Shown: positions 1 to 27,764 of the stretch, piece by piece
Numbering within the stretch: the first letter of the stretch is position 1
Layout of the letters: each line of letters begins with the position of its first letter
IMG/VR virus record: IMGVR_UViG_3300030085_004215
Span: 32,001 to 96,000 of that record
From: a virus
Strand: one strand, 5' to 3'
DNA: 64,000 bases
Program-made: the position numbers and the translations under genes
Notes under the pieces: model-generated
Databases searched by the model: none
The model's input: only the letters and a program-made list of their open reading frames with translations
What the model was told of the DNA's origin: nothing

Positions 1-696
1 AGGATGTCTAACAACATCTCCTAAATCAAATCTACAAAAACCACATCCATAAACACCAGTAAATCTCTTAACACTATCCTCCAAACCATTATCCGTTTTG
101 GTTCGTAAATCACTCTGTTGCAAATCTCCACTAACGATATATTTAGAACCCAAGCCAATTCTCGTTAGAAAAGTTTTGATTTGTGATGGTGTAGAGTTTT
201 GTGCCTCATCTAACATTACAATTTTATTCTGTAGTGTTAAACCTCTCATGTATGCAAGTGGAATAACTTTTATTATTCCAGCTTTTCTCAATACATCCAA
301 TCTCTGCTTACCGATTATCTGTTCCATATTATAATATACTGATTGCATAAATGGTTCAGTTTTCTCATCAATATCACCAGGTAAATATCCTATCCTTTCA
401 CCGTCTACCTCAACCATAGGTTTGGTGACAATAATACCGTCAAAGTTAGAATTTTTATCTGCAATACTCTGTAATGCCCAATATGTTGCAACATATGTCT
501 TACCACAACCTGCAGGCCCAACACAAAATGTAATAGTATTGGTATCAATATTATCCCAAAACTTTTGTTGATTTCGTGTTTTTGCTTTAAAATCCCATTT
601 GATTCTTTTCATTTGAGACAGTGCTTGTCGATGGTTTGCACATTCTTGATTACTTACAACCTTTGTAATAGTTTCAACTTTTCGTTTTCTACTCAT
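1..696 (-). CDS. phoH: PhoH-family ATPase (3' end runs off the window)
   Basis: Manual translation from ATG at 696: GPAGCGKT Walker A, PGDIDEK, YMRGLTL, DEAQN; AAGGGG SD upstream. Confidence 0.92.
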   Translation of the reverse strand, partial: MSRKRKVETITKVVSNQECANHRQALSQMKRIKWDFKAKTRNQQKFWDNIDTNTITFCVGPAGCGKTYVATYWALQSIADKNSNFDGIIVTKPMVEVDGERIGYLPGDIDEKTEPFMQSVYYNMEQIIGKQRLDVLRKAGIIKVIPLAYMRGLTLQNKIVMLDEAQNSTPSQIKTFLTRIGLGSKYIVSGDLQQSDLRTKTDNGLEDSVKRFTGVYGCGFCRFDLGDVVRHP

Positions 697-765: not shown

Positions 766-1707
766 TTACTTTATTTTTATACCACCTTTTAATGGATTTC
801 TTATTTTTTTCTCTGAAGTTTTTTCTTCTATTTTCAGCTCACTATCACTATCACGATTTTCGACAATGTCAAGTTTTTTTTCAATTTTTTCTCGTTTTAA
901 TATATTATCTTTTTTCTCACCATATACTTCCCACCACTTTTTTATTTTTTTATTTTTTTTCAAAAAAGGCTTCGAAGCTGCTCCAGTTTTTCCAGAATCT
1001 TCTTTTTCTTTAAGTAACAGTGCTTGGTTAAATGCTATCACCAACATTACAGCCAATGGGTCAAAGACGAATATTAAGACGAATATAAAAAAACTAACTA
1101 CAGTATCCACATCGGTGTTAAAAGTTCTAGCTAAATAAATTGCAGGTCCTACATCAACTCCAGTCTCAACGAGTGCAATTTTTAAATCACCTATCTCTTG
1201 TTTAAGACTCATCATAGTTGTATTAACTTCATTTATTTTAGGTTGATACTCTTCCCTAAGTTTTCTTTTGGCAGTTCTGTAATTATCAGGTAGTTCAGAT
1301 ACTGCGGCTTCTAACTCTTCTTTTAAAAACTTTTTATCCTCTGATAATTGTTTTAATCTATCTTCTTTATATAATAGTGCTGTTGATTCTTTTTCAAAAG
1401 TTACTGTTGCACCTTGATAGGCATTGGATAAATATCCAAATATTCCAGCAGAGGTTATTAATATCAATACCACAGTTGCTATTGATAAATAAACTTTTTG
1501 TAGGTAATTTATTTTATCCCAATATCTGTATAGAAATGCAGCAGTAACCAACTTACCAAATTCTAATGAACCTGCCATGATGATTACTGATAATGTTGCA
1601 CCACTAAATAATTTACTCAATCCAAATACTGAATAAAAACCTGCACTACCAGCAATTAGTAATGCAGCAATCCCCAAAAATATATGAAAATTCTTGGAGC
1701 GTTCCAT
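766..1707 (-). CDS. Multi-TM membrane protein with central coiled coil
   Basis: Three N-terminal hydrophobic helices, coiled coil, further TM (FIFVLIFVFDPLAV); AGGAG SD. Confidence 0.6.
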   Translation of the reverse strand: MERSKNFHIFLGIAALLIAGSAGFYSVFGLSKLFSGATLSVIIMAGSLEFGKLVTAAFLYRYWDKINYLQKVYLSIATVVLILITSAGIFGYLSNAYQGATVTFEKESTALLYKEDRLKQLSEDKKFLKEELEAAVSELPDNYRTAKRKLREEYQPKINEVNTTMMSLKQEIGDLKIALVETGVDVGPAIYLARTFNTDVDTVVSFFIFVLIFVFDPLAVMLVIAFNQALLLKEKEDSGKTGAASKPFLKKNKKIKKWWEVYGEKKDNILKREKIEKKLDIVENRDSDSELKIEEKTSEKKIRNPLKGGIKIK

Positions 1708-7113: not shown

Positions 7114-7143
7114 AATATAAGGCTTTTTGCCTATACGAGTCAA
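7114..7143 (-). promoter_or_regulatory. Early sigma70-type promoter (copy 1 of 13)
   Basis: TTGACT-N18-TATATT with A-rich UP element, upstream of AAA gene. Confidence 0.8.
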
Positions 7144-8335: not shown

Positions 8336-8345
8336 TTTTTAGGAG

Positions 8346-8418
8346 TGGAGCTGACAGGGTTCGAACCTGCGACCCCCACAGTGCAAGTGTGGTGCTCTCC
8401 CAACTGAGCTACAGCCCC
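8346..8418 (-). tRNA. tRNA-Ala(TGC)
   Basis: Full cloverleaf GGGGCTG...CCACA-CTTGCAC-TGTGG...GGTTCGAACC...CAGCTCCA; G3:U70 Ala identity pair; CCA not encoded. Confidence 0.97.
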
Positions 8419-8622: not shown

Positions 8623-10682
8623 TTTTCCAAGAACTTTTTGTTCATTGTTTTAGCAACTTGTAAAACATTTTGAACATCAATATATTGAGCATCATTACCA
8701 TACATTTTCTTAAAGTTTGATTTCTCGCTATCAGAACTGTAGCTTGAATCACTAACAAAGTAAGATAAAACCTTAACACCCATTTTACGAATAGCTTTAA
8801 CTTGTTTGTTAGTATGAATTAATGCCTGGCCATGATTGTAACTAATTTCATTGTTATTAAACATTGGCATTCCATCTGAAAAATTTAAGAAGTATGAATC
8901 ACGATTTCTTGATGTAGGAACAATATCTTTCAGTATTGCTTCAAAACATAAACCTTCTGGTGTTGTTCCGCCAGGGTGAATATTTTTAAACATATTTCTA
9001 ACTTTCATAAAACTATCAGTACGAGAATCATAACCAATTAAAATTAAAGGAAGCGTATCTGAATTTCTACCATAACTACGATTTGTATTGTGAGTACTTC
9101 TAAAACTAACAACCACATCCACATTTGAAATCATGTCAACTGCCTTACAAATAGCAACAACTGATACCATTGTATTGAACCATTTATCCCCACCCATAGA
9201 ACCACTAGCATCAACTGAGATATGTAAGAACGCATCTGAATAAGATTCAACAAATGTTTGTTGAAAAACTCTATCATTACCAAAACCTAATTCAGCAATT
9301 AATCTCTTATCAATACGACCAGAATCTAATCTGTTCCATTTTAAATCACGAGATTCTCCACGAACTTGTAACTTACGACCTAACTTACTACCAAGTTTAA
9401 CACCCTTAATAATAGCATCTTCATAACCTCTTGTCCAAGTAGTTAGTACTGATGGGAACATATTTTCATCAATCATAGTTTGAGTAAGTTTTTTTACATA
9501 GATACAAGCAACACCTTTACCTGCAACATATCTACCTTGTTTATTATCCCAAACTTCACCAACACCCTCACCTGTATTAACTTTTTCAACACCAGCTTCT
9601 TCCATAGTTTTAACAATTTGATTATCTTTTTTAGTGAGAGTACCTTGTTTTTTAGTATCACCATTTACAAAATCTTTTTGTTTTGAAAATTGTTTACTAA
9701 GTTGTCTTTTTTGATTATTAGTAAGTTCTTCAACCTTACCTGGAATTTGTTCACCATCTTCATTACCACCCTCAGAACCTTCACCAGAACCCTCAAGTTG
9801 TGGATTATCACCAGTAACAGGTTGATTTTTTGTATCACCGAATTCATCAGTAACCTCTTTACCATCAGCCAAACAATCAAGAATAAGTTTGTATACTTGA
9901 GTTGCAACTTTATATGCTTCTTCAGTAGAATTCATTTTCTTGATATTACTAAAAATTAGTCTGTATATTTTATCAAGACCAGGTAGTACATCTAATCTAC
10001 GATTTTCATTAGTTAGATTTAAGATTCTGAAAATGTATGAATCCCAATCTAAATCAGTATACTCATTTGTTTTAAGTGCTTTATCAACAACTTTAGAGTG
10101 AAAATACTTATCATACATTGAATGATAATAACCTTTATAACCAGGTGAATTTGAGAACACATAATAATCAATTCTTCTATCTTCTACATAGTTCAATAAA
10201 TTTTTAAGATGTCCAAGAATATCAAATCTATCAAAACCTTTCTTCTCACCTAATACAAAAAGTTCTTCAGGTGTATTTTGTTCAAGATTTCTTAAGAAAT
10301 CAAAATCTGAAAGTTTAATATGAGAACCCTCATGAAGTGCTAACCCAACAACTGGGTCAAAGTTTTTCTCATCAATCTTGGAACCTATAACAACTGTTTT
10401 ACCATCTGTATATGAATCACCACGAGTTTGAAATTTAACATTTATATCAGAACGACTTGTTACAATAGTAACAAAGTTAGATATTGCTCTACGATAAGAT
10501 GCCAATTGTACATGGTCAGCACCTTTCTTGACTGGTTCATCATCAATGAACTCACTTCTACGAGTATCCCACTCAGTATCAGCCCAAAAAGAACTGAAAG
10601 GGTTTGTATTTTTAGATAGGTTTTTAGCACTATATTTTTCACGAAGTGCCATTGGGTTAAAATGTTTTAGTTTTGAATCCAT
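8619..10682 (-). CDS. vWA-domain protein with N-terminal HExxH metallopeptidase-like domain (partner of MoxR-type ATPase)
   Basis: LALHEGSH, NYVEDRRID, SGRID, MIDAS DASGSM, GGTTPEG, FSDGMP; start at second Met after AAGGA SD. Confidence 0.85.
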   Translation of the reverse strand: MDSKLKHFNPMALREKYSAKNLSKNTNPFSSFWADTEWDTRRSEFIDDEPVKKGADHVQLASYRRAISNFVTIVTSRSDINVKFQTRGDSYTDGKTVVIGSKIDEKNFDPVVGLALHEGSHIKLSDFDFLRNLEQNTPEELFVLGEKKGFDRFDILGHLKNLLNYVEDRRIDYYVFSNSPGYKGYYHSMYDKYFHSKVVDKALKTNEYTDLDWDSYIFRILNLTNENRRLDVLPGLDKIYRLIFSNIKKMNSTEEAYKVATQVYKLILDCLADGKEVTDEFGDTKNQPVTGDNPQLEGSGEGSEGGNEDGEQIPGKVEELTNNQKRQLSKQFSKQKDFVNGDTKKQGTLTKKDNQIVKTMEEAGVEKVNTGEGVGEVWDNKQGRYVAGKGVACIYVKKLTQTMIDENMFPSVLTTWTRGYEDAIIKGVKLGSKLGRKLQVRGESRDLKWNRLDSGRIDKRLIAELGFGNDRVFQQTFVESYSDAFLHISVDASGSMGGDKWFNTMVSVVAICKAVDMISNVDVVVSFRSTHNTNRSYGRNSDTLPLILIGYDSRTDSFMKVRNMFKNIHPGGTTPEGLCFEAILKDIVPTSRNRDSYFLNFSDGMPMFNNNEISYNHGQALIHTNKQVKAIRKMGVKVLSYFVSDSSYSSDSEKSNFKKMYGNDAQYIDVQNVLQVAKTMNKKFLEK

Positions 10683-19962: not shown

Positions 19963-21690
19963 TTACTTTGTTGTCAAATCGAATACTTTCATATTTTTCC
20001 ACCCATTTACTTTGGTGAGGTCTTTCTTATCAATAACCACTATTCTTTCCACACCTCTTACTTTGTAATGTGTATTACCATAATCTCTGATATTGGTTTT
20101 GAGTTTATTAAAATGGTTATCATTTTCTCCACCATGTACCCAAACCATAGTTCTGAAAGGTTTCATGTGGTCTGGAGTTTCCATCTGAATCCTGGCCAGA
20201 AATTCAGTATAGTGGTAATCATCCATTACATCTATCTGAAACTCTAACAAATCATATTTATCATTTTCATCCACTTGGTGAACCAAATCCAAATTATGTG
20301 GATACACTTTCTGTAAATCCTCTTTCCAACTACTATCTAATGTATCAACATTCCTGTCAAGTACTCTACCCATATTCAATAGTGTATTACTATGTAGTGG
20401 ATGAGTATCATCTTGTAGAATTTTTACAATTTCGGATACCTCATTCTTCTCTTGTGATGAATGTACGGTTCCTTTAGTTTTATGTTCCCAACCCATATCC
20501 AATACGAGTTTTCTCAAAAATGTTTTAATTTTCTCTTGAAATTTGGTATCACTAATCTTGGTCTTATCACGACCAGAGGGATTATCTGGAGATGAGGGTA
20601 GTATTTGGATAACTAATTTACGATAGTTATATCTTGAATCCCATGTACGAGTATGTTCACTATATAACCCAATTTCAAATAATCTAACCCTATTCGGTCC
20701 AAGTACATCAATGGTTGGGAAAGACCTATCTCCACCTTTGGAATCCCATAGAAATACATTATCCTCACCAACCCTATTCTTAAAATCCTCGAACTCGGCC
20801 GAGTTTTCAGGTGGTATCACATCCGTGTAATAAACTGATATATGATACTCCTTATCACCATCTTTAATTTTATGGAAATTACCTAAAACATCGTCCTCTT
20901 GGTTTACTGAGGGTATCATATCCTCAATAGTGGTAACAAGATTATCACCAAATACTGGTAAGTATAGTTTATTATTAGAACCAGTATTATCACCAATTTT
21001 GAAGTTTATACTAACATCAGTATTGTTGAATCTTCTACGAGTAAATTTTCTAATCTTGTAAAAATCAAAATTAAGACCTAAATCACTATATAGATTTATC
21101 TTATCGAAGAAACCAGTATATTCTCCACCTTGACCATGTAGTTTAAGAAAATCAACAAGACCAACAGAATAGAAATCTACTGAGATTCCTACACAATGAT
21201 TCATAAATTGTCTTTTAGAAATATTATGAATATCATCCTCTAAAAAATTCTGATTATCGAATTCATAATTAAATTTACCAATGATATAAGTATCACCAGA
21301 AATTTTGAAACCAACATAATCTCTAATCCCAATTTGATACATCCCTAATGAACCACCAATTCCGGCCAGGTCAATAGAGTAATCACTTGGTTTTTTCTTT
21401 TTACCAGTTTTTCTTCTGATAAAGTTACTTATCACAAAATTCATTCCAGAGTTTTCATCAACCACCTCTGGTCGTTTTGTTAATCCAACACCATTATCCG
21501 AATGGATAAATATATTATTATCAATATGGTTAAGAATCTTTCTTGATTCATAATCAAATGAGTTATCGTCTTGTTCGGCCGAGATATTCTCATCGGTGAA
21601 ATCGTTCTCCAATGGTTGGACAGTAATCCAACTATGTAAATCTTCACCAATATCATAACTACCGATTTTGTTTAATTTTGAAAAATCCAT
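19963..21690 (-). CDS. Large hypothetical protein with divergent GHKL-ATPase-like N-terminus
   Basis: QPLEND (N-box-like), SDNGVG (G1), AGIGG (G2); own early promoter. Confidence 0.5.
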   Translation of the reverse strand: MDFSKLNKIGSYDIGEDLHSWITVQPLENDFTDENISAEQDDNSFDYESRKILNHIDNNIFIHSDNGVGLTKRPEVVDENSGMNFVISNFIRRKTGKKKKPSDYSIDLAGIGGSLGMYQIGIRDYVGFKISGDTYIIGKFNYEFDNQNFLEDDIHNISKRQFMNHCVGISVDFYSVGLVDFLKLHGQGGEYTGFFDKINLYSDLGLNFDFYKIRKFTRRRFNNTDVSINFKIGDNTGSNNKLYLPVFGDNLVTTIEDMIPSVNQEDDVLGNFHKIKDGDKEYHISVYYTDVIPPENSAEFEDFKNRVGEDNVFLWDSKGGDRSFPTIDVLGPNRVRLFEIGLYSEHTRTWDSRYNYRKLVIQILPSSPDNPSGRDKTKISDTKFQEKIKTFLRKLVLDMGWEHKTKGTVHSSQEKNEVSEIVKILQDDTHPLHSNTLLNMGRVLDRNVDTLDSSWKEDLQKVYPHNLDLVHQVDENDKYDLLEFQIDVMDDYHYTEFLARIQMETPDHMKPFRTMVWVHGGENDNHFNKLKTNIRDYGNTHYKVRGVERIVVIDKKDLTKVNGWKNMKVFDLTTK

Positions 21691-21728
21691 TTCTTAATTC
21701 CTTGTATTTTCTTTATTTATTATACCTA

Positions 21729-21758
21729 AATATACGAACAAAAACATATATGTGTCAA
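21729..21758 (-). promoter_or_regulatory. Early promoter (copy 6)
   Basis: TTGACA-N18-TATATT. Confidence 0.8.
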
Positions 21759-22210
21759 GAGTTTTTTTCATAAATTTTTATTTTATGGTACATTTTATTT
21801 AAGGCCTCTTTTTGTTTCGGTGTAACCCGACCATATCGTTTTACCCCTTTTAGAACACTAGTCAAAAAGGATAAACTACTATCTTTCCATTTATCAGTAC
21901 CATCGGCCTCTTTTACTAAAAACATCAACTTAGTTATTTTTTCTTCTATACTCTGTATCTTCTCAACTCGTTTTGGGTCGTCATTTTCTTTTCTCCATTT
22001 CACATAACCATCTATAATTTTTTGGATTGCCGATTCCATCTTAGGTGTTATAGTTCTACCACCACTAATTGCATTAGTCATACTATGGACAAATTCCTTG
22101 TAACCGTCATTCATATAGTAATCACCGTCTGAGATGATGTAACTCAGTTGTTGGTGTTGTTTTTTGAATTTGTCCATATTATCGACAATCCTATGAGGGA
22201 CTTTACTCAC
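21755..22210 (-). CDS. Hypothetical protein with internal duplication
   Basis: Repeated F(V/L)xS...GR/x-TPK helical units. Confidence 0.6.
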   Translation of the reverse strand: MSKVPHRIVDNMDKFKKQHQQLSYIISDGDYYMNDGYKEFVHSMTNAISGGRTITPKMESAIQKIIDGYVKWRKENDDPKRVEKIQSIEEKITKLMFLVKEADGTDKWKDSSLSFLTSVLKGVKRYGRVTPKQKEALNKMYHKIKIYEKNS

Positions 22211-22214
22211 TTAC

Positions 22215-22415
22215 TTAGAAATCCTCCAGGAGTTCATCAAGTTCACTATCCATTCCATCAAAATCATTGATGAATCCATCATTCAATGTATCGAACATCA
22301 CATTATCCATCTTCATATCGTCAAGTGACATTTTTTTGGTTCCATATCCAACATCTTTAGTAGATGTATGTTTTTTGAGTTTTTTTGGTTTATTGACCAT
22401 TTTGTTTTTCTTCAT
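22215..22415 (-). CDS. Small hypothetical protein (basic N-terminus, acidic C-terminus)
   Basis: Start MKKNKM after AAGGA SD and promoter copy 7. Confidence 0.6.
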   Translation of the reverse strand: MKKNKMVNKPKKLKKHTSTKDVGYGTKKMSLDDMKMDNVMFDTLNDGFINDFDGMDSELDELLEDF

Positions 22416-22441
22416 TGTTTTTCCTTTATTTATCATGGTTA

Positions 22442-22471
22442 AATATACAAAACTTTTACTATATGTGTCAA
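22442..22471 (-). promoter_or_regulatory. Early promoter (copy 7)
   Basis: TTGACA-N18-TATATT. Confidence 0.8.
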
Positions 22472-22509
22472 GTGTTTTTTTCACTTTTTTAATTTTTTTT
22501 TTCGTAAGG

Positions 22510-23024
22510 AGTTGGTGGGAAGTACTCCGCCCTCCCACCATATGAGAATCAGAACTAACTACCGATATTAATTTCGCCACCTCGGTAGAGGGTGACCTTA
22601 AATCTTTCGATTGATGTCCGATGTGCTCTTCCGTTCCACCTCGGTAAAACATTTTCTACAAAGGGTCTGTGTTCCCTATAGAAGTAATCAAACCATGTAC
22701 CATCAATCTAAATCTTAGTGTTGGACTGGTTCTCCTCTTTATTCGCGAGTTCAAGGATATTCCGAGTTGTCCGTAGACTTTCATTTTAAGGTTCTCACAC
22801 CACTCAATCCCTACTCCTCTTTCGTGAACTGAGCCAACAAAATCTTTGGTGGTCTTTGTCTATGAGTTCCACCTTCTCTCATCTGCCTCATTATTCTTGA
22901 TTCTACCGAGGACTTTAGTAGAACCCCACATTCTTCTTACCCTATCCCGTCTTTACCCAATGTGGTAGGTGGGATTCAACAGGTTTTCATTAGTTCATCG
23001 GTTTATTTTCTCCTCATTTATCAT
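22510..23024 (-). ncRNA. Candidate large structured non-coding RNA (~480-510 nt)
   Basis: Own promoter, no credible ORF, series of hairpins incl. AAUC-GAAA-GAUU and a terminal 10-bp stem (22513-22540). Confidence 0.55.
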
Positions 23025-23029
23025 ACCTA

Positions 23030-23059
23030 AATATACGGCTTTTTTACTATATAAGTCAA
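23030..23059 (-). promoter_or_regulatory. Early promoter (copy 8)
   Basis: TTGACT-N18-TATATT; -35/spacer/-10 identical to copy 2. Confidence 0.8.
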
Positions 23060-23225
23060 GTACTTTTTTCATTTTTTTTCAATTTTTTTTTATCATTAAT
23101 ATCTAAATCTATTACACACCCTAAACAAATTTCTGGATAAAAAATCATTTTACCATCTAATGGACCAGAACAAACCTTACAAGTAATTTCTTCCAGTCCG
23201 ATAGTCATTAATGGTTTTTTCATTT

Positions 23226-23570
23226 TTAAAACAATTCTCCATTTACTTGGATTAAATCTTGTGTTAATGTACTTGGTTCATCAAAAGATGAAGTGATAAA
23301 TGGACCATCTTCATCTACATCTACATCCCATCCACACCCAACTCTGGCCATTACTTCGTCTACGATTTTATCCTCACCAAATGCAAGTTTATCAAACCAG
23401 TCGTACTTCATATCTAATACTGAAGTAGGATTACTGAAATCAATATCACCATTTTCTAAAATTTTAAAGACATTACCATTAATGGTATCAATTACAGAAT
23501 GGACTTGAAATAAAACTTTTATTTCACTTGTGTCACGATTGTTGTTTTCTAAATATGTTTCTAAGTTCAT
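23226..23570 (-). CDS. Hypothetical early protein
   Basis: Second Met after AAGGA SD; own promoter. Confidence 0.65.
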   Translation of the reverse strand: MNLETYLENNNRDTSEIKVLFQVHSVIDTINGNVFKILENGDIDFSNPTSVLDMKYDWFDKLAFGEDKIVDEVMARVGCGWDVDVDEDGPFITSSFDEPSTLTQDLIQVNGELF

Positions 23571-23596
23571 TATTTTTCCTTTATTTTTCATACCTT

Positions 23597-23626
23597 AATA
23601 TACAAAAGAAATACTATATAAGTCAA
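23597..23626 (-). promoter_or_regulatory. Early promoter (copy 9)
   Basis: TTGACT-N18-TATATT. Confidence 0.8.
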
Positions 23627-23635
23627 GTACTTTTT

Positions 23636-23995
23636 TTAATTTTTTTCAGAAAGTTTTGAAAAATATTCATCCTTACTGATACCCAGTCTACCATTAGTTT
23701 TTCTACCCCAAGTAAACTCACTCTTTAGTTTTTTGTTAGACAATACATTAACAAAAAACTCATTAGTTGGATTCTCACAAACAAACTCATAGTTTTTTAA
23801 GAATCTATCCACACCATTCATATCACTACTTTTTGTGAAATACATTCTTTCATATGGTAAATTTACAGTACTCATAGACAATTTGAAATTCTTGAAATAC
23901 TTATTGTACTCAACTCCGACATGTTGGATAGTACCACTTCTTTTATTTACCCAATAAGTGTAAGTACCTTCTTTTAGATGTTTTCTTGTATTCAT
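23636..23995 (-). CDS. Hypothetical early protein
   Basis: Second Met after AAGGA SD; contains no Ala. Confidence 0.65.
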   Translation of the reverse strand: MNTRKHLKEGTYTYWVNKRSGTIQHVGVEYNKYFKNFKLSMSTVNLPYERMYFTKSSDMNGVDRFLKNYEFVCENPTNEFFVNVLSNKKLKSEFTWGRKTNGRLGISKDEYFSKLSEKN

Positions 23996-24021
23996 TATTT
24001 TTTCCTTATTTTTCATACCTT

Positions 24022-24051
24022 AATATACTAAAGAAATAGTATATGTGTCAA
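24022..24051 (-). promoter_or_regulatory. Early promoter (copy 10)
   Basis: TTGACA-N18-TATATT. Confidence 0.8.
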
Positions 24052-24068
24052 GTGTTTTTTTCATTTTT

Positions 24069-24413
24069 TTATAAATAATTTGGACCCGTCCAACTATAAT
24101 AATCTTGGTTCTTATCAAAGATATTACCACGAGTATGTTTTGCTGCTGCATTATATCCTGCGGCCTTGAATACATCACCACACTTCATAGGTAGACCTTT
24201 ATGTTGTCCATCTACTTTTGCAACAAATCCCCAAACACGATTCCTCTCTACAATCTTGTCGAACTTACGACCTGGTTTTATGTCTAATTCTAAATCTCTG
24301 GCATGAGTATGTTTAGACCAGTTGTGATAACTCGTTTGAATACCTTTCAATAGGTTTTCAACACCTGTTTTGTAATCGTTTTTTGGTGGTAATGGTTTAA
24401 TTCCGTTAATCAT
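24069..24413 (-). CDS. Conserved phage early hypothetical protein
   Basis: GRKFDKIV...VWGFV...GDVFKAAGYNAAAKHTRGNI motif seen in T4-like marine phages; AAGGAG SD. Confidence 0.7.
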   Translation of the reverse strand: MINGIKPLPPKNDYKTGVENLLKGIQTSYHNWSKHTHARDLELDIKPGRKFDKIVERNRVWGFVAKVDGQHKGLPMKCGDVFKAAGYNAAAKHTRGNIFDKNQDYYSWTGPNYL

Positions 24414-24439
24414 TATTTTCTCCTTATTTTTGATACCTT

Positions 24440-24469
24440 AATATACGAAGAAAATATAATACGAGTCAA
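24440..24469 (-). promoter_or_regulatory. Early promoter (copy 11)
   Basis: TTGACT-N18-TATATT. Confidence 0.8.
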
Positions 24470-24517
24470 GTACTTTTTTTATATTTTTTGAAGTTTTTTA
24501 ATGAATGGAATAAAACT

Positions 24518-24802
24518 TTATTTGTATAACATTTCCCATAGGTTTTTCAGAAAAAGTGATAGAAAACCAACTCCGATGACACCTCTCCATTTTGTCGTAT
24601 TTTCTCTGAATTGAGTATTCTGTTTTGTCTCTGCCCATAATCCCTCGTGTGGATTAAATAGATTCTCCTTCAAAAACCTTAATGATTCATCTGTCCTACC
24701 ATGTGCCATGGACATTTCGTGTTTCAACTCATCAAGTTTTTTTTCAATTGAATCAATCTTATTATGGACTAAATCAAATTCTTTTCTATCGGCTTGGTTC
24801 AC
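24518..24802 (-). CDS. Coiled-coil protein with C-terminal TM helix
   Basis: Heptad pattern then WRGVIGVGFLSLFL. Confidence 0.6.
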   Translation of the reverse strand: MNQADRKEFDLVHNKIDSIEKKLDELKHEMSMAHGRTDESLRFLKENLFNPHEGLWAETKQNTQFRENTTKWRGVIGVGFLSLFLKNLWEMLYK

Positions 24803-24846
24803 CTTAACATACCCCTATGTTTAGTTGATAATAAATACTGTATATA

Positions 24847-25044
24847 TTAATTTCTGTACTTTCTTGGAGTTGGTTTTTTTGGTTTATATCCACTTTCTAA
24901 AACTTTTTTATCTTCAATCAAGTTATCAATCAATCTGTTCTTTCTTTCCATAGATTTTATAGTGAATAAACCCATTGACAAACCACCCATTATTACTCCA
25001 ATAATAATACCACAAAAAAATGCCAACCAAATAGGATTAATCAT
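24847..25044 (-). CDS. Small single-TM protein
   Basis: N-terminal hydrophobic helix. Confidence 0.55.
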   Translation of the reverse strand: MINPIWLAFFCGIIIGVIMGGLSMGLFTIKSMERKNRLIDNLIEDKKVLESGYKPKKPTPRKYRN

Positions 25045-25148
25045 TTTGTCTTTGATGTTCGTATAACACTAATACATACATTAAAACACATCCCATTGCG
25101 ATTAGTCCTACTGGAACCACATTAAGATATATTATTAAAATTGCCTCA

Positions 25149-25337
25149 CTAATCGTCATCTGTTTCCTCGTTGGTTAAATACTCAGAATCTTGATGTACC
25201 ACAATGACACTTCCACTTTCTTCACTTGGATTATCTTCATAATCTTTACGAAGTTCTATGGCCTCTTTTTCAATCTCTATCGAAAGGTTTTCAAGTTCTT
25301 TTAATTGTTCTTGTGTTAAAATTGGTTCTTTACTCAT
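25149..25337 (-). CDS. Small acidic hypothetical protein
   Basis: ATGA coupling. Confidence 0.55.
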   Translation of the reverse strand: MSKEPILTQEQLKELENLSIEIEKEAIELRKDYEDNPSEESGSVIVVHQDSEYLTNEETDDD

Positions 25338-25591
25338 CCTAATAACCTATCTTCATCATCAACTATATCTTTATCTTCTTTCCACCATTCTACCTGTCTA
25401 TTCTGTAATGATGACCTCAATCCTAAATCAAAATCATTTTCAGTCTGTACTTTCCATAATTTATCAAATTCACTTTCATCTATCTGTTTTCGTTTAACAA
25501 AATAGGTTTTTGCACCCGATATACCAACATCATCCGATAAATCAACTTTATCAATTATCTCATCAAATTTATTAACTAATAAATACTTCAA
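25334..25591 (-). CDS. Hypothetical protein
   Basis: AGGAG SD with TTG start. Confidence 0.6.
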   Translation of the reverse strand: MKYLLVNKFDEIIDKVDLSDDVGISGAKTYFVKRKQIDESEFDKLWKVQTENDFDLGLRSSLQNRQVEWWKEDKDIVDDEDRLLG

Positions 25592-25603
25592 CTCAAACTC
25601 CTT

Positions 25604-26140
25604 TTATTCAAGGACGATACCAATCATATCCCAACTCTCTCTATTGTATTGTGCACCGACCCATAGTGTATCACCAATCATATTTTGGACTGGTGCAATC
25701 ATATTTACAACCTCACCATCATCACTATAACTGGCATAATTACTCGTTCTAACTTCATGACCAACAAAATGTGTTATATAAGTGGTATCATAACCGACCC
25801 ATTGTACTTCATCACTTAACCCACCATGAACATAATAACCCATAGTATCACCAACATGCCAATATAGATTACTTTCGAAATACACTTTCCATCTATCAAC
25901 TGCCCCATCTTGGTCTGTTAAGAACCCCTCTAACCTATGTAATGTTTGCCATTTAAATCTATTGATTGTAAGATGATATAATCCGTTATCATCTTGTGGT
26001 AAACCCACTGTCCAAACAAATTCAAATTCTCGTTCCTCCTCATAGTGTTTATCTTCACACCCTATGAATATGAATAGACTAACGAGAACTATTCTTTTTA
26101 TTAATCTTGAATGTCTTTGAATCTTTTTTACTAAATTCAT
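25604..26140 (-). CDS. Putative lipoprotein
   Basis: Basic N-region, hydrophobic stretch, FIG-C lipobox. Confidence 0.55.
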   Translation of the reverse strand: MNLVKKIQRHSRLIKRIVLVSLFIFIGCEDKHYEEEREFEFVWTVGLPQDDNGLYHLTINRFKWQTLHRLEGFLTDQDGAVDRWKVYFESNLYWHVGDTMGYYVHGGLSDEVQWVGYDTTYITHFVGHEVRTSNYASYSDDGEVVNMIAPVQNMIGDTLWVGAQYNRESWDMIGIVLE

Positions 26141-26246
26141 TGTAACTCTTCCTTTTCTTTTTTGGTTTTTTCTTTGTTTGGATTGTTTCTCTGAAGGCCT
26201 CTTCTTCGAGTTCTTCCCAATCCAAATTGTTATGAAATTTACTCAT
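26079..26246 (-). CDS. Small charged hypothetical protein (55 aa)
   Basis: MSKFHNNLDWEELEEEAF...; AAGGAG SD right after promoter copy 12. Confidence 0.55.
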   Translation of the reverse strand: MSKFHNNLDWEELEEEAFRETIQTKKKPKKKRKSYNEFSKKDSKTFKINKKNSSR

Positions 26247-26258
26247 TTACAACTCCTT

Positions 26259-26288
26259 AATATAACACCAAAAATACATACGAGTCAA
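26259..26288 (-). promoter_or_regulatory. Early promoter (copy 12)
   Basis: TTGACT-N18-TATATT. Confidence 0.75.
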
Positions 26289-26527
26289 CGCTTTTTTACT
26301 CTTAATTTCTCTATGAAACTTAAAAACTCTTCTATACTATAAGTAGTACCCTGGTCATCGAAAATACTAAAATTTTCTAATGATTCTGGTTGGTTGTGAA
26401 TCAGATTGTGTAGTGCAAGCATACCATCTCCTGCATACCAAGTTCCTAAACTCTCTTCACCTAAAATATTAGAATCAAACATTAAATTTTCTTTAGATTC
26501 ATTTTTCCCTAATATGAAAAACGTCAT
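26285..26527 (-). CDS. Hypothetical protein
   Basis: Coupled ORF. Confidence 0.55.
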   Translation of the reverse strand: MTFFILGKNESKENLMFDSNILGEESLGTWYAGDGMLALHNLIHNQPESLENFSIFDDQGTTYSIEEFLSFIEKLRVKKR

Positions 26528-27764
26528 TTACCATCCCCTCTTCAAGTGGTTTCACTCTTCTAATTTCAACATCAAATATATCTATCTCAAATCTTCCTTC
26601 TTCACCCGAATCAGAGAGTATATTTGATAAATTTTCAATAATATCTCTACTATAGTTCGTTATTCTATCACAATCAAATCTTAAAATAATATCATTATCT
26701 ACTTCCGAATGATGTGTCTTGATTTTTTTTGATAAATCGTACAATGTATTCTGTTGTTCTGAACTTATGTATTTATTTACACCATAACCTTTATGTCCAA
26801 CCCAATCTCCATAAATTGTGGTACACCACGGTTCTAAATATTCTAAATTCTGTAAATTACAATTCTCTACCACAAAACCTATATCATATACTTTAGGTAT
26901 GACTGGATGTAACCATTCATCATGAGTTATTATTGCACCCCATTTTCTAATAAAGTTTCGTGTACTCCGTTGGTTCTGAGCCAACCACTCCGATGATTCT
27001 CTACCCTTCATAAAAACTTGACCTGCAGGATTTCTAATTGCACCATCTTTGAATCTACTACCTCTACAAGTCATATGATACACAAACCCTTTCCAAGTCT
27101 GTATCAACTCGTATCCTGCCAAAAGAAATCTGTTGAATATATCAGAGTCCTCTTTGGATTGTGGTGCAAATAGTGGGTCATGTCCACCAACAAAATCCCA
27201 ATCCTTTTTCATTATGGCCCATGGTGCAAATATTCCTTTTGAAATCTCTTGATTGAGAGATAATGGCCCGTATAACAAACCATCCTTACCAGTTTGGATA
27301 TCATCAACAAACTTTAATAATTCAGTTTCTTTAAACTCCTCTGGTTCTATTCCGAAATCTTCTAATATTTTTTCTTTACCATCTGGATGTAATGGTGGTT
27401 CTATTCTTGTTAGTGATACGACAGTTCCATCTTTAATAAGTTTATCTATCTGTACATCTGAATTAGGACAGAGATACATATCTGCATGAAATATCATAAC
27501 TATATCATTACTTGAATACTCATTTATTAATGTATCATATAGAATAGTATGTCCTAATCTTTCTGGACCTGGATTGACATGTAATCTAACCTTTTTATCA
27601 GTTTTCATAATTTCCTCAACCCACTCAACTGTCCCATCTGTACTTGCATCACTTGCAATACAAATCTCGTGTTCTATAGATTGGTTCCTACGAATACTAT
27701 TATATGCCTGTTTTAAATATTTTAAGTTATTCCTACTTGGTAATATAAAACTTATAGGTCTCAT
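26499..27764 (-). CDS. Glycosyltransferase family 2
   Basis: ISFILPSRN, DASTDGT, HADM, GGHD, EDSD. Confidence 0.88.
   Translation of the reverse strand: MRPISFILPSRNNLKYLKQAYNSIRRNQSIEHEICIASDASTDGTVEWVEEIMKTDKKVRLHVNPGPERLGHTILYDTLINEYSSNDIVMIFHADMYLCPNSDVQIDKLIKDGTVVSLTRIEPPLHPDGKEKILEDFGIEPEEFKETELLKFVDDIQTGKDGLLYGPLSLNQEISKGIFAPWAIMKKDWDFVGGHDPLFAPQSKEDSDIFNRFLLAGYELIQTWKGFVYHMTCRGSRFKDGAIRNPAGQVFMKGRESSEWLAQNQRSTRNFIRKWGAIITHDEWLHPVIPKVYDIGFVVENCNLQNLEYLEPWCTTIYGDWVGHKGYGVNKYISSEQQNTLYDLSKKIKTHHSEVDNDIILRFDCDRITNYSRDIIENLSNILSDSGEEGRFEIDIFDVEIRRVKPLEEGMVNDVFHIREK

Follow-up and report, generated by a model that had tools for sequence, protein, structure and literature searches.

What does a strong early promoter of a phage transcribe when no gene follows it? 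This question is raised by positions 22505-23030, minus strand, of the viral DNA analysed here, a window of 64,000 nt that comprises bases 32001-96000 of the 120,405-bp IMG/VR record IMGVR_UViG_3300030085_004215 (completeness estimate 66%). Coordinates refer to the window; the RNA unit runs on its minus strand, so that the numbers fall from 5' to 3'. Phage-encoded structured RNAs and leader elements are known as a kind, and a preliminary description made from the letters of the stretch had seen here one large RNA similar in size to ROOL, GOLLD and OLE. Comparison with other phages shows that the unit is non-coding and that its 5' module and its core are conserved RNAs, predicted to fold, which are separable from each other. 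On balance, we consider it probable that the stretch is a single early unit without an open reading frame (ORF), in which three RNA modules stand end to end, and not one integrated fold. The 5' module itself, and the joining of two modules and a tail into a single unit without an ORF, are new to us.

A promoter cassette without its gene

The promoter lies at 23030-23059 (minus strand) and reads TTGACT-18 nt-TATATT, the perfect early promoter that the preliminary description had reported. It is one of 12 repeats: the pattern TTGACW-N18-TATATT was met 12 times in the window against 0.07 expected, every time on the minus strand, with the first base of the -35 hexamer at 7143, 7619, 10738, 11317, 21758, 22471, 23059, 23626, 24051, 24469, 26288 and 53861 (by pattern and alignment). 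The aligned copies share an A-tract, the two hexamers, the 18-nt spacer and the leader AAGGUAUGAAAAAUAAGGA.AAAAUA, after which comes the AUG of a gene; this AUG is found within about 30-50 nt after 10 of the 12 copies. The copy at 23059 has the shared leader as well (23005-23029, minus strand), with the Shine-Dalgarno sequence (SD) GAGGAG at 23015-23010, and we infer a transcription start near 23023. Whereas the gene AUG stands within about 6 nt of the leader in the other cassettes, its usual position is empty here. The next promoter cassette, at 22442-22471 (minus strand) ahead of a 66-aa ORF (22415-22215), sets the 3' limit of the ORF-less unit. The terminator scan gave no terminator-like site in 20000-27000. 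As no terminator separates the unit from the next cassette, transcription probably continues into the 66-aa gene.

About 520 nt without a credible ORF follow the promoter. Minus-strand ORFs in them are at most 42 aa long, in line with the earlier statement that some 480 nt hold no credible frame. A 145-aa ORF at 22652-22215 (minus strand) crosses the next promoter cassette into the 66-aa gene and is read as an artefact. The GC content over 22500-22999 is 0.40-0.44 in 200-nt windows, compared with 0.24-0.36 on either side.

The Infernal comparison with Rfam that the preliminary description had proposed was carried out, and the stretch matches no Rfam 15 family. At gathering scores, the scan of the whole window gave only a tRNA-Ala (8346-8418), and a permissive scan of 22350-23150 (E up to 10) gave only a chance match to SNORD20 with E 3.6. 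No Rfam model of ROOL, GOLLD, OLE, RNase P, tmRNA or introns was matched in the stretch, ARAGORN reported neither a tRNA nor a tmRNA inside it, and the Rfam scan of the homolog loci gave nothing. The earlier remark that hallmarks of RNase P, tmRNA and group I or II introns are missing thus agrees with both programs. A BLAST search against 50,697 phage records returned only a chance match of 51 nt, in the promoter region. Neither module was found described in the literature by a full-text and a topic search; 15-mers of the invariant block were absent from the full texts, and the 12-mers occurred, among the matches listed, in papers on human or animal subjects only.

The core belongs to a family of structured RNAs

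Relatives of the middle third came from several searches. An 18-mer taken from 22700-22830 met two stretches in IMG/VR, one of them a true relative (L114), which is 94% identical to the core over 145 nt (RNA positions 184-327) and shares with it the helices P1-P5, the GGAG loop on P2 and the invariant block. The window's 114-aa ORF, a DUF7717-like early gene with matches to phrog_5014 and phrog_818, led to 48 further loci around its relatives; these gave a diverged copy of the core (L176) together with a match to the 5' third (L185). An 18-mer that is invariant in three copies of the core was found in 24 stretches of metagenome contigs; 11 of these are members, accepted by the covariance model with E 1.8e-8 or better, 3 appear to belong to a wider class and 10 are chance matches. 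A scan of 185,579 bacterial and archaeal genomes for this 18-mer found 7 stretches, each a chance occurrence in coding or unrelated DNA. Other pattern scans gave 29 stretches with one true relative and 26 stretches with two, both already known.

The covariance model R1 places the core at 22702-22849 (minus strand), as a member of an uncatalogued RNA family of marine phages. RNAalifold on three copies predicted the helix P1 (22839-22834/22724-22719), which closes the domain, and within it P2 (22833-22824/22811-22803) with the loop GAAAGAGGAGUA, P3 of 3 bp (22801-22799/22792-22790) with the loop GUGAGA, and the small P4 (22778-22776/22771-22769). The conserved single strand UUAAAAUG (22789-22782) is invariant. 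P5 has two parts; its outer stem P5b, UCCUU/GAGGA (22757-22753/22737-22733), carries a loop with the palindrome UCGCGA at 22748-22743.

The window copy is the best-scoring member and matches R1 over its full length (model positions 1-148) with 176.9 bits, a score that is partly due to construction since this copy was one of the three on which the model was trained. Independent support came from copies outside the training set, which scored 79.9 (L223), 63.6 (L238) and 41.0 bits (L221). In eight distinct sequences 94.3% of the 227 cells pair, and 19 of the 31 pairs are changed on both sides; the window copy keeps all 31. When the partners were slid by 1-3 columns, 33-48% of the cells paired and 4-9 pairs were double-changed, and none of 500 shuffles of the core reached any of the five measures. 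We conclude that the core belongs to an RNA family outside Rfam 15, the predicted helices of which are supported by covariation.

Two further features are shared by the members. The block GGUGUGAGAACCUUAAAAUG between P2 and P4 is present in all eight distinct members, and its final UG lies outside the 18-mer used for searching. In every member, a perfect palindrome lies in the loop of P5b, but its sequence differs: the palindrome is 6 nt long in the window and in the L114 type, 10 nt in L176, L225 and L238, a different 10 nt in L223 and 8 nt in L221. Shuffles of each loop reached these lengths in 0.5-11% of the trials. The palindrome may be a site for loop-loop dimers or a tiny capping hairpin; for the 6-nt palindrome of the window a capping hairpin is impossible.

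The 5' module is shared with one other phage genome

The 5' module (22846-23004, minus strand) has the appearance of a leader-type structured RNA and has one genomic homolog. In 1.57 Mb of loci, nhmmer aligned RNA positions 18-181 to L185:11353-11514 with E 2.8e-4. L185 is another IMG/VR phage contig, where a promoter-like site is followed by the 5' module and then immediately by an SD and an acidic ORF of 148 aa that belongs to no known protein family; it does not carry the core. In the 48 early-region records the model R2 found no further copy beyond that of L185 itself, and the pattern of the second conserved block met one stretch in IMG/VR, on L185's own contig. The conserved blocks of the module are ACCGAUGAAnUAR, GGUAAAnACGnGnUAGGGUA, the hairpin loop AAAGUCCU, GAUGAG, CUCA and GACAAAnACC.

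The first block contains a two-codon mini-ORF, AUG AAC UAA (22990-22998, minus strand), and a second mini-ORF, AUG AAA ACC UGU UGA (22976-22990, minus strand), overlaps with it. The preliminary description had listed both as M-N-stop and M-K-T-C-stop behind the GAGGAG sequence, and all three elements are there. Contigs from other runs, X7 (DNA) and X16, X18 and X19 (RNA libraries), were compared as well, which hold no information on transcription, ends or strand and are uninformative for the parts they leave uncovered. In the place of the mini-ORF, L185 has AUG AAU UAG and the X16 contig has AUG GCG UAG, and an SD-like run follows downstream in X16 as in L185. The layout of a two-codon minigene (SD at 5-12 nt, AUG, one codon, stop) was seen in three sequences only, the window, L185 and X16. 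The bar regions of phage lambda are two-codon minigenes. Like them, the putative minigene here places an SD, an AUG, a single sense codon and a stop close to the start of a phage transcript under a strong promoter; unlike them, its second codon varies (AAC, AAU, GCG).

RNAalifold predicted for the 5' module the helices a (22984-22981/22942-22939), b (22975-22971/22948-22944), c (22970-22967/22958-22955), H2 (22925-22918/22906-22899), which presents the conserved loop AAAGUCCU, and S2. The variable letters in the second block covary with the upstream strand of helix b. The helix H1, CCACAUU/AAUGUGG (22965-22961/22930-22926), crosses b and c, and 5 of its 5 pairs covary. At the end of the module, the comparison of the two sequences suggests an H-type pseudoknot made of AUGAG (22882-22878) with CUCAU (22866-22862) and GGUGG (22873-22869) with CCACC (22852-22848). 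All 31 pairs are formed in the window and in L185, and 15 are changed on both sides, while the slid controls gave 31-42% paired and 0-2 double-changed pairs. Because the structure was derived from the same two sequences, this covariation is suggestive rather than proof.

The seven hairpins of the preliminary description are all present in the sequence, and their fate in the comparison was uneven. CCACAUU/AAUGUGG and UUCUACU/GGUAGAA covary against L185 and AUGAG/CUCAU is conserved without covariation, whereas AAUC-GAAA-GAUU is broken by three substitutions in the variant contig of run X7. The covariation analysis on homologs that had been called for gave structured RNA with covariation for two thirds of the unit, with 19 of 31 pairs in the core and 15 of 31 in the 5' module.

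Core and 5' module occur apart in other phages

The genomic context of the core was compared at the 14 loci other than the window that hold it. Seven of them are of the L114 type, in which the core has its own promoter and is followed by a hairpin and a terminator. In L114 the order is a cassette promoter, a 25-nt leader, the shared 145 nt, an anti-SD hairpin with a CCUCC loop and the terminator; unlike this, the window core lies between a 5' module of 160 nt and a 3' module of 200 nt and has no terminator. In L176 and L225, about 400 ORF-less nt separate the promoter and core from the next cassette. The ORF-less unit of L176 (3554-3960, plus strand) and that of L225 have several strong hairpins and a tail unlike that of the window.

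In L223 and L238 the promoter and the core precede an ORF, which starts 19 and 13 nt, respectively, after the end of the model. The two downstream proteins are unrelated, and that of L238 is a DUF7717 protein. A riboswitch-like cis element would be a conserved aptamer with an expression platform that always lies upstream of functionally related genes. It is in L223 and L238 alone that the core immediately precedes an ORF, and the downstream proteins are unrelated or of unknown family. Reading of the sequences showed that in L223 (2118-2240, plus strand) the frame from the invariant AUG ends with a UAA that abuts the AUG of the 167-aa ORF, a layout of translational coupling.

In L221 and L229 the core comes just after the T-arm and acceptor end of a tRNA-like element. 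This end, GGUUCGAAUCC..., lies directly 5' of the core at about 10324-10360 (minus strand) of L221 and is the same in L229; on L229, the one of the two that was scanned for this, Rfam called no tRNA at E up to 1.

In other phages, then, core and 5' module occur apart, each with its own similar promoter cassette. Both are sporadic among the relatives: of the 48 early-region records, 2 hold the core and 1 holds the 5' module. Each is single-copy in this phage. Of 80 contigs from relatives by DNA polymerase, 41 were searched, and nothing in them matched beyond the 30-nt cassette leader (0 of 41). The separate occurrence of the 5' and middle thirds does not support one large RNA. The proposal of a large RNA of the ROOL, GOLLD and OLE kind is therefore not supported: the modules are separable, none of the 41 polymerase relatives holds any of them, and no large-RNA model of Rfam matches at E up to 10.

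The 3' module and the joints between the modules

The remaining third, the 3' module (22505-22701, minus strand), is hairpin-rich in its predicted structure. It had no nhmmer match in the 1.57 Mb of loci, and local comparison with the 3' regions of L176 and L114 showed no significant resemblance. An 11-mer, UACCGAGGUGG, is duplicated in it at 22646-22636 and 22587-22577 (minus strand; two copies compared with 0.01 expected), and its complement CCUCGGUA lies upstream at 22911-22904. The repeat and the complement that the preliminary description had pointed out are indeed present, whereas the long-range pairing of UACCGAGG with CCUCGGUA it had envisaged competes with the covariation-supported helix H2.

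Towards the 3' end stands a terminal hairpin of 10 bp, UGGUGGGAGG/CUUCCCACCA (22513-22540, minus strand), then ACUCCUUACG and an A-run; the DNA variant contig differs here. By the terminator scan it is not an intrinsic terminator because no U-tract comes after it. The tail ACUCCUU (22506-22512, minus strand) is the complement of two other sites, the 5' SD and the P2 loop. In the minimum free energy (MFE) fold of the full length, the pairing of this tail with the 5' SD closes the molecule, and the covarying helices of the core are not reproduced.

RNA-library contigs of the other runs cover parts of all three modules, namely 22871-22979 (X16), 22719-22883 (X18) and 22557-22607, 22610-22732, 22797-22847 and 22880-23028 (X19). 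The X18 contig spans the joint between the 5' module and the core. The X7 contig (22534-22864) comprises the core and the 3' module and has 31 differences. Since these two contigs span the joints, the composite exists in other samples. Among 40 of the 71 differences, 10 substitutions fall in the 3' module; when they were mapped manually on the predicted fold, 7 were unpaired, 2 kept a local hairpin and 1 broke a pair.

How the unit may have arisen and what it may do

Repeated early-promoter cassettes are a feature that the window has in common with the promoter-early stem-loop (PeSL) cassettes of T4-type phages, on which Arbiol et al. reportedly worked in 2010. Both occur where the early region of a T4-like phage varies, and unrelated content is exchanged between the repeats. 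In the parts of Comeau et al. 2014 (PMC4122927) cited here, PeSLs of T4-type phages are composite terminator/promoter motifs and are connected with ORF shuffling. In contrast to PeSLs, a stem-loop terminator joined to the promoter was not found here, the hairpin at 22540-22513 having no U-tract, and it is RNA modules that lie between the cassettes, whereas PeSLs swap ORFs. The modules would move between phages with the repeated promoter cassettes as PeSL cassettes shuffle genes, and in the present phage two of them would have come into tandem with no gene between.

For their action, we tentatively propose start-site mimicry, a possibility to which we give less weight than to the modular make-up itself: the modules may engage the ribosome or a factor that recognises start regions. 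This proposal was made because single strands resembling start sites are displayed on folded scaffolds. At the 5' end this would be the SD with the start-codon-stop mini-ORF; P2 would contribute its GGAG loop, and the strand after P3 the invariant A-tract with AUG. Ahead of a gene, as in L185, L223 and L238, the modules would set the translation or the stability of that gene; alone, as in the L114 type, the L176 type and the window, they would be decoys or a long regulatory leader. A wider version, in which a kit of mobile start-site-mimic modules is strung into an early RNA of about 0.5 kb that self-associates through the palindromic loop and soaks up a start-site factor during host takeover, appears rather improbable to us.

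Comparable elements are the translational operators of phage T4, for which the sections of Uzan and Miller 2010 (PMC3014915) used here give the pseudoknot of the gene 32 leader and the sites of RegA and RegB. In L185 the 5' module likewise ends in a predicted H-type pseudoknot just upstream of the ribosome-binding site of the gene, as in the gene 32 operator, but there is no sequence similarity to the T4 operators and the downstream proteins here are of unknown family. According to the same sections (PMC3014915), RegB cuts GGAG start regions and RegA binds A-rich unstructured stretches with an AUG; the GGAG and the A-tract with AUG seen here are motifs of these kinds.

If start-site mimicry were true, it would be a new way for a phage to steer translation early in infection. 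Testable features are the conserved start-stop mini-ORF, the invariant A-tract with AUG and the loop that stays palindromic despite sequence change. Large uncultured marine phages set aside early units with strong promoters for RNA instead of protein. The present case indicates that an apparent giant RNA can be an assembly of portable modules, which the two covariance models for the core and the 5' module allow to be traced.

Weighing the alternatives

A single fold of about 520 nt, an integrated large ornate RNA that is perhaps multimeric like ROOL and GOLLD, would suit the size, the raised GC content and the many hairpins of the unit. ROOL, GOLLD and OLE are large ornate RNAs, as far as the cited portions of Kretsch et al. 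(bioRxiv 10.1101/2024.12.08.627333) go, and the unit taken whole resembles them in size class, in its association with phages and in having a palindromic loop that could mediate self-association; that the P5b loop is palindromic in every member and could make loop-loop dimers also fits. Such a fold would be closed by the ACUCCUU tail on the 5' SD in the MFE structure, the repeated 11-mer has its complement in the 5' module, and the joints between 5' module and core and between core and 3' module are seen on contigs of other samples. Against this stand the modules found separately and in other combinations, so that the window unit is modular and not co-inherited, the 8-bp long-range pairing that overlaps with H2, the failure of the full-length MFE fold to form the covarying helices of the core, and the lack of an Rfam match at E up to 10; with no full-length homolog available, no covariation is seen across the module borders. 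We regard this reading as distinctly unlikely. Somewhat less unlikely, though we would not bet on it, is that the modules are stable small RNAs which act in trans without relation to start sites, e.g. in early processive antitermination or by interference with host defence or RNase. In its favour, the core is most often found as a discrete unit that has its own promoter and ends in a strong terminator (7 of 14 loci), the core of L221 lies beside a tRNA-like element in ORF-poor DNA, and the elements are accessory and sporadic in the early regions of relatives; yet nothing indicates a target, and in half of its contexts the core is a direct 5' leader of an ORF.

That cassette recombination deleted the genes and left a non-functional remnant of stacked leaders, merely tolerated by the phage, would explain why the core follows directly on the 5' module here, while an SD and an ORF follow it in L185 and the X16 contig, why the usual AUG position of the cassette is empty and why the 3' module has no homolog. 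However, the window core is the best-scoring member with all 31 model pairs kept, the 5' module keeps all its 31 pairs too, and the same joints recur in other samples with sequence differences, which argues that the arrangement persists in the population; a remnant is quite improbable, a shade more so than a single fold. A decayed or recoded protein gene has as its point of departure frame 1 of 22505-23030 (minus strand), which has 4 stops in 175 codons against 17 and 15 elsewhere, a value that 1% of the shuffles equal. The four stops are TGA, TAA, TAG and TAG, and since all three kinds occur, no single reassignment opens the frame. Its read-through translation (X at stops) was matched neither by Pfam nor by PHROG at E up to 10, nor by any protein of 96-307 residues in a large protein collection. 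An intact ORF in homologs had been named beforehand as the sign of a decayed gene; no homolog has a longer ORF, none is conserved among them, and the substitutions that compensate in the helices rewrite the peptide. The short peptides from the invariant AUG of the core vary among the members in length and sequence, as judged by reading. We have rejected the decayed gene, which has a very small probability in our view, and the non-coding, promoter-driven unit of the preliminary description stands.

Several points weigh against the modular reading and the role at start sites. The alignment of the core was fitted to the model. The invariance of the 18 bases is partly by construction because the 18-mer search found 11 metagenome loci, which make up five of the eight distinct sequences. 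A GGAG loop on P2 is present in only five of the eight distinct members, and the loops of the other three are unrelated. The 5' module rests on two genomic sequences that are also the source of its structure, and the 3' module is without any comparative support. Folding energies are unremarkable, with z = -0.55 for the 5' module, +0.07 for the core and -1.34 for the 3' module; the full length has z = -2.1 and the opposite strand z = -1.6. Thermodynamics alone is weak evidence here, and the comparison of homologs carries the weight. The depletion of stops in frame 1 is unexplained. The contigs from RNA libraries also touch the flanking genes and DNA is possible in such libraries, so that transcription is not shown by them. 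The role at start sites was proposed from motifs, and RegA (PF01818) and RegB (PF10715) were not found in G000, G042, G076 and G084 (19-66% complete), a result that decides nothing as the control genomes were unmatched too.

The phage and its early region

The source is treated as an uncultured marine T4-like phage because of its polymerase type and the marine and seawater metagenome runs in which it recurs. The DNA polymerase is of the T4 gp43 type, with a top match of 42% identity in 50,697 cultured-phage records; the query was the 90%-identical protein of a relative (L012), standing in for the window's own. The matches comprised 2,679 records, mostly T4-like phages of enterobacteria, cyanobacteria and vibrios. 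Between 40 and 99% of the sampled words of the stretch were found in 15 DNA runs from marine and seawater metagenomes, of which two may themselves be the source. All ORFs of at least 150 aa in the window are on the minus strand. The tRNA-Ala (anticodon UGC, 8345-8418, minus strand) is the sole match of Rfam and ARAGORN in the window. Used as a synteny anchor, the flanking 575-aa ORF found no relative in IMG/VR; the flanking 121-aa ORF gave weak local matches only, and the matched loci held no RNA homolog.

Three further loci, L217, L227 and L239, have the 18-mer directly after a hairpin, followed by a different conserved region with a covarying hairpin of the GGAUU/AAUCC type, and perhaps represent a wider superfamily. 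About 95 nt after the wider-class RNA of L217, at about 1215-1245 (plus strand), there is a hammerhead-like core (CUGAUGAG, a short stem and CGAAAC), at which Rfam gave nothing at E up to 1.

A family of small early proteins (phrog_5014/phrog_818, DUF7717 in L238) is encoded near the core in the window and three other lineages, at most a few kb away and on one side or the other. Its genes lie at 24069-24413 (minus strand) of the window, 1032-1403 (minus strand) of L114 and 140-514 (minus strand) of L238, and about 460 nt after the core in L176.

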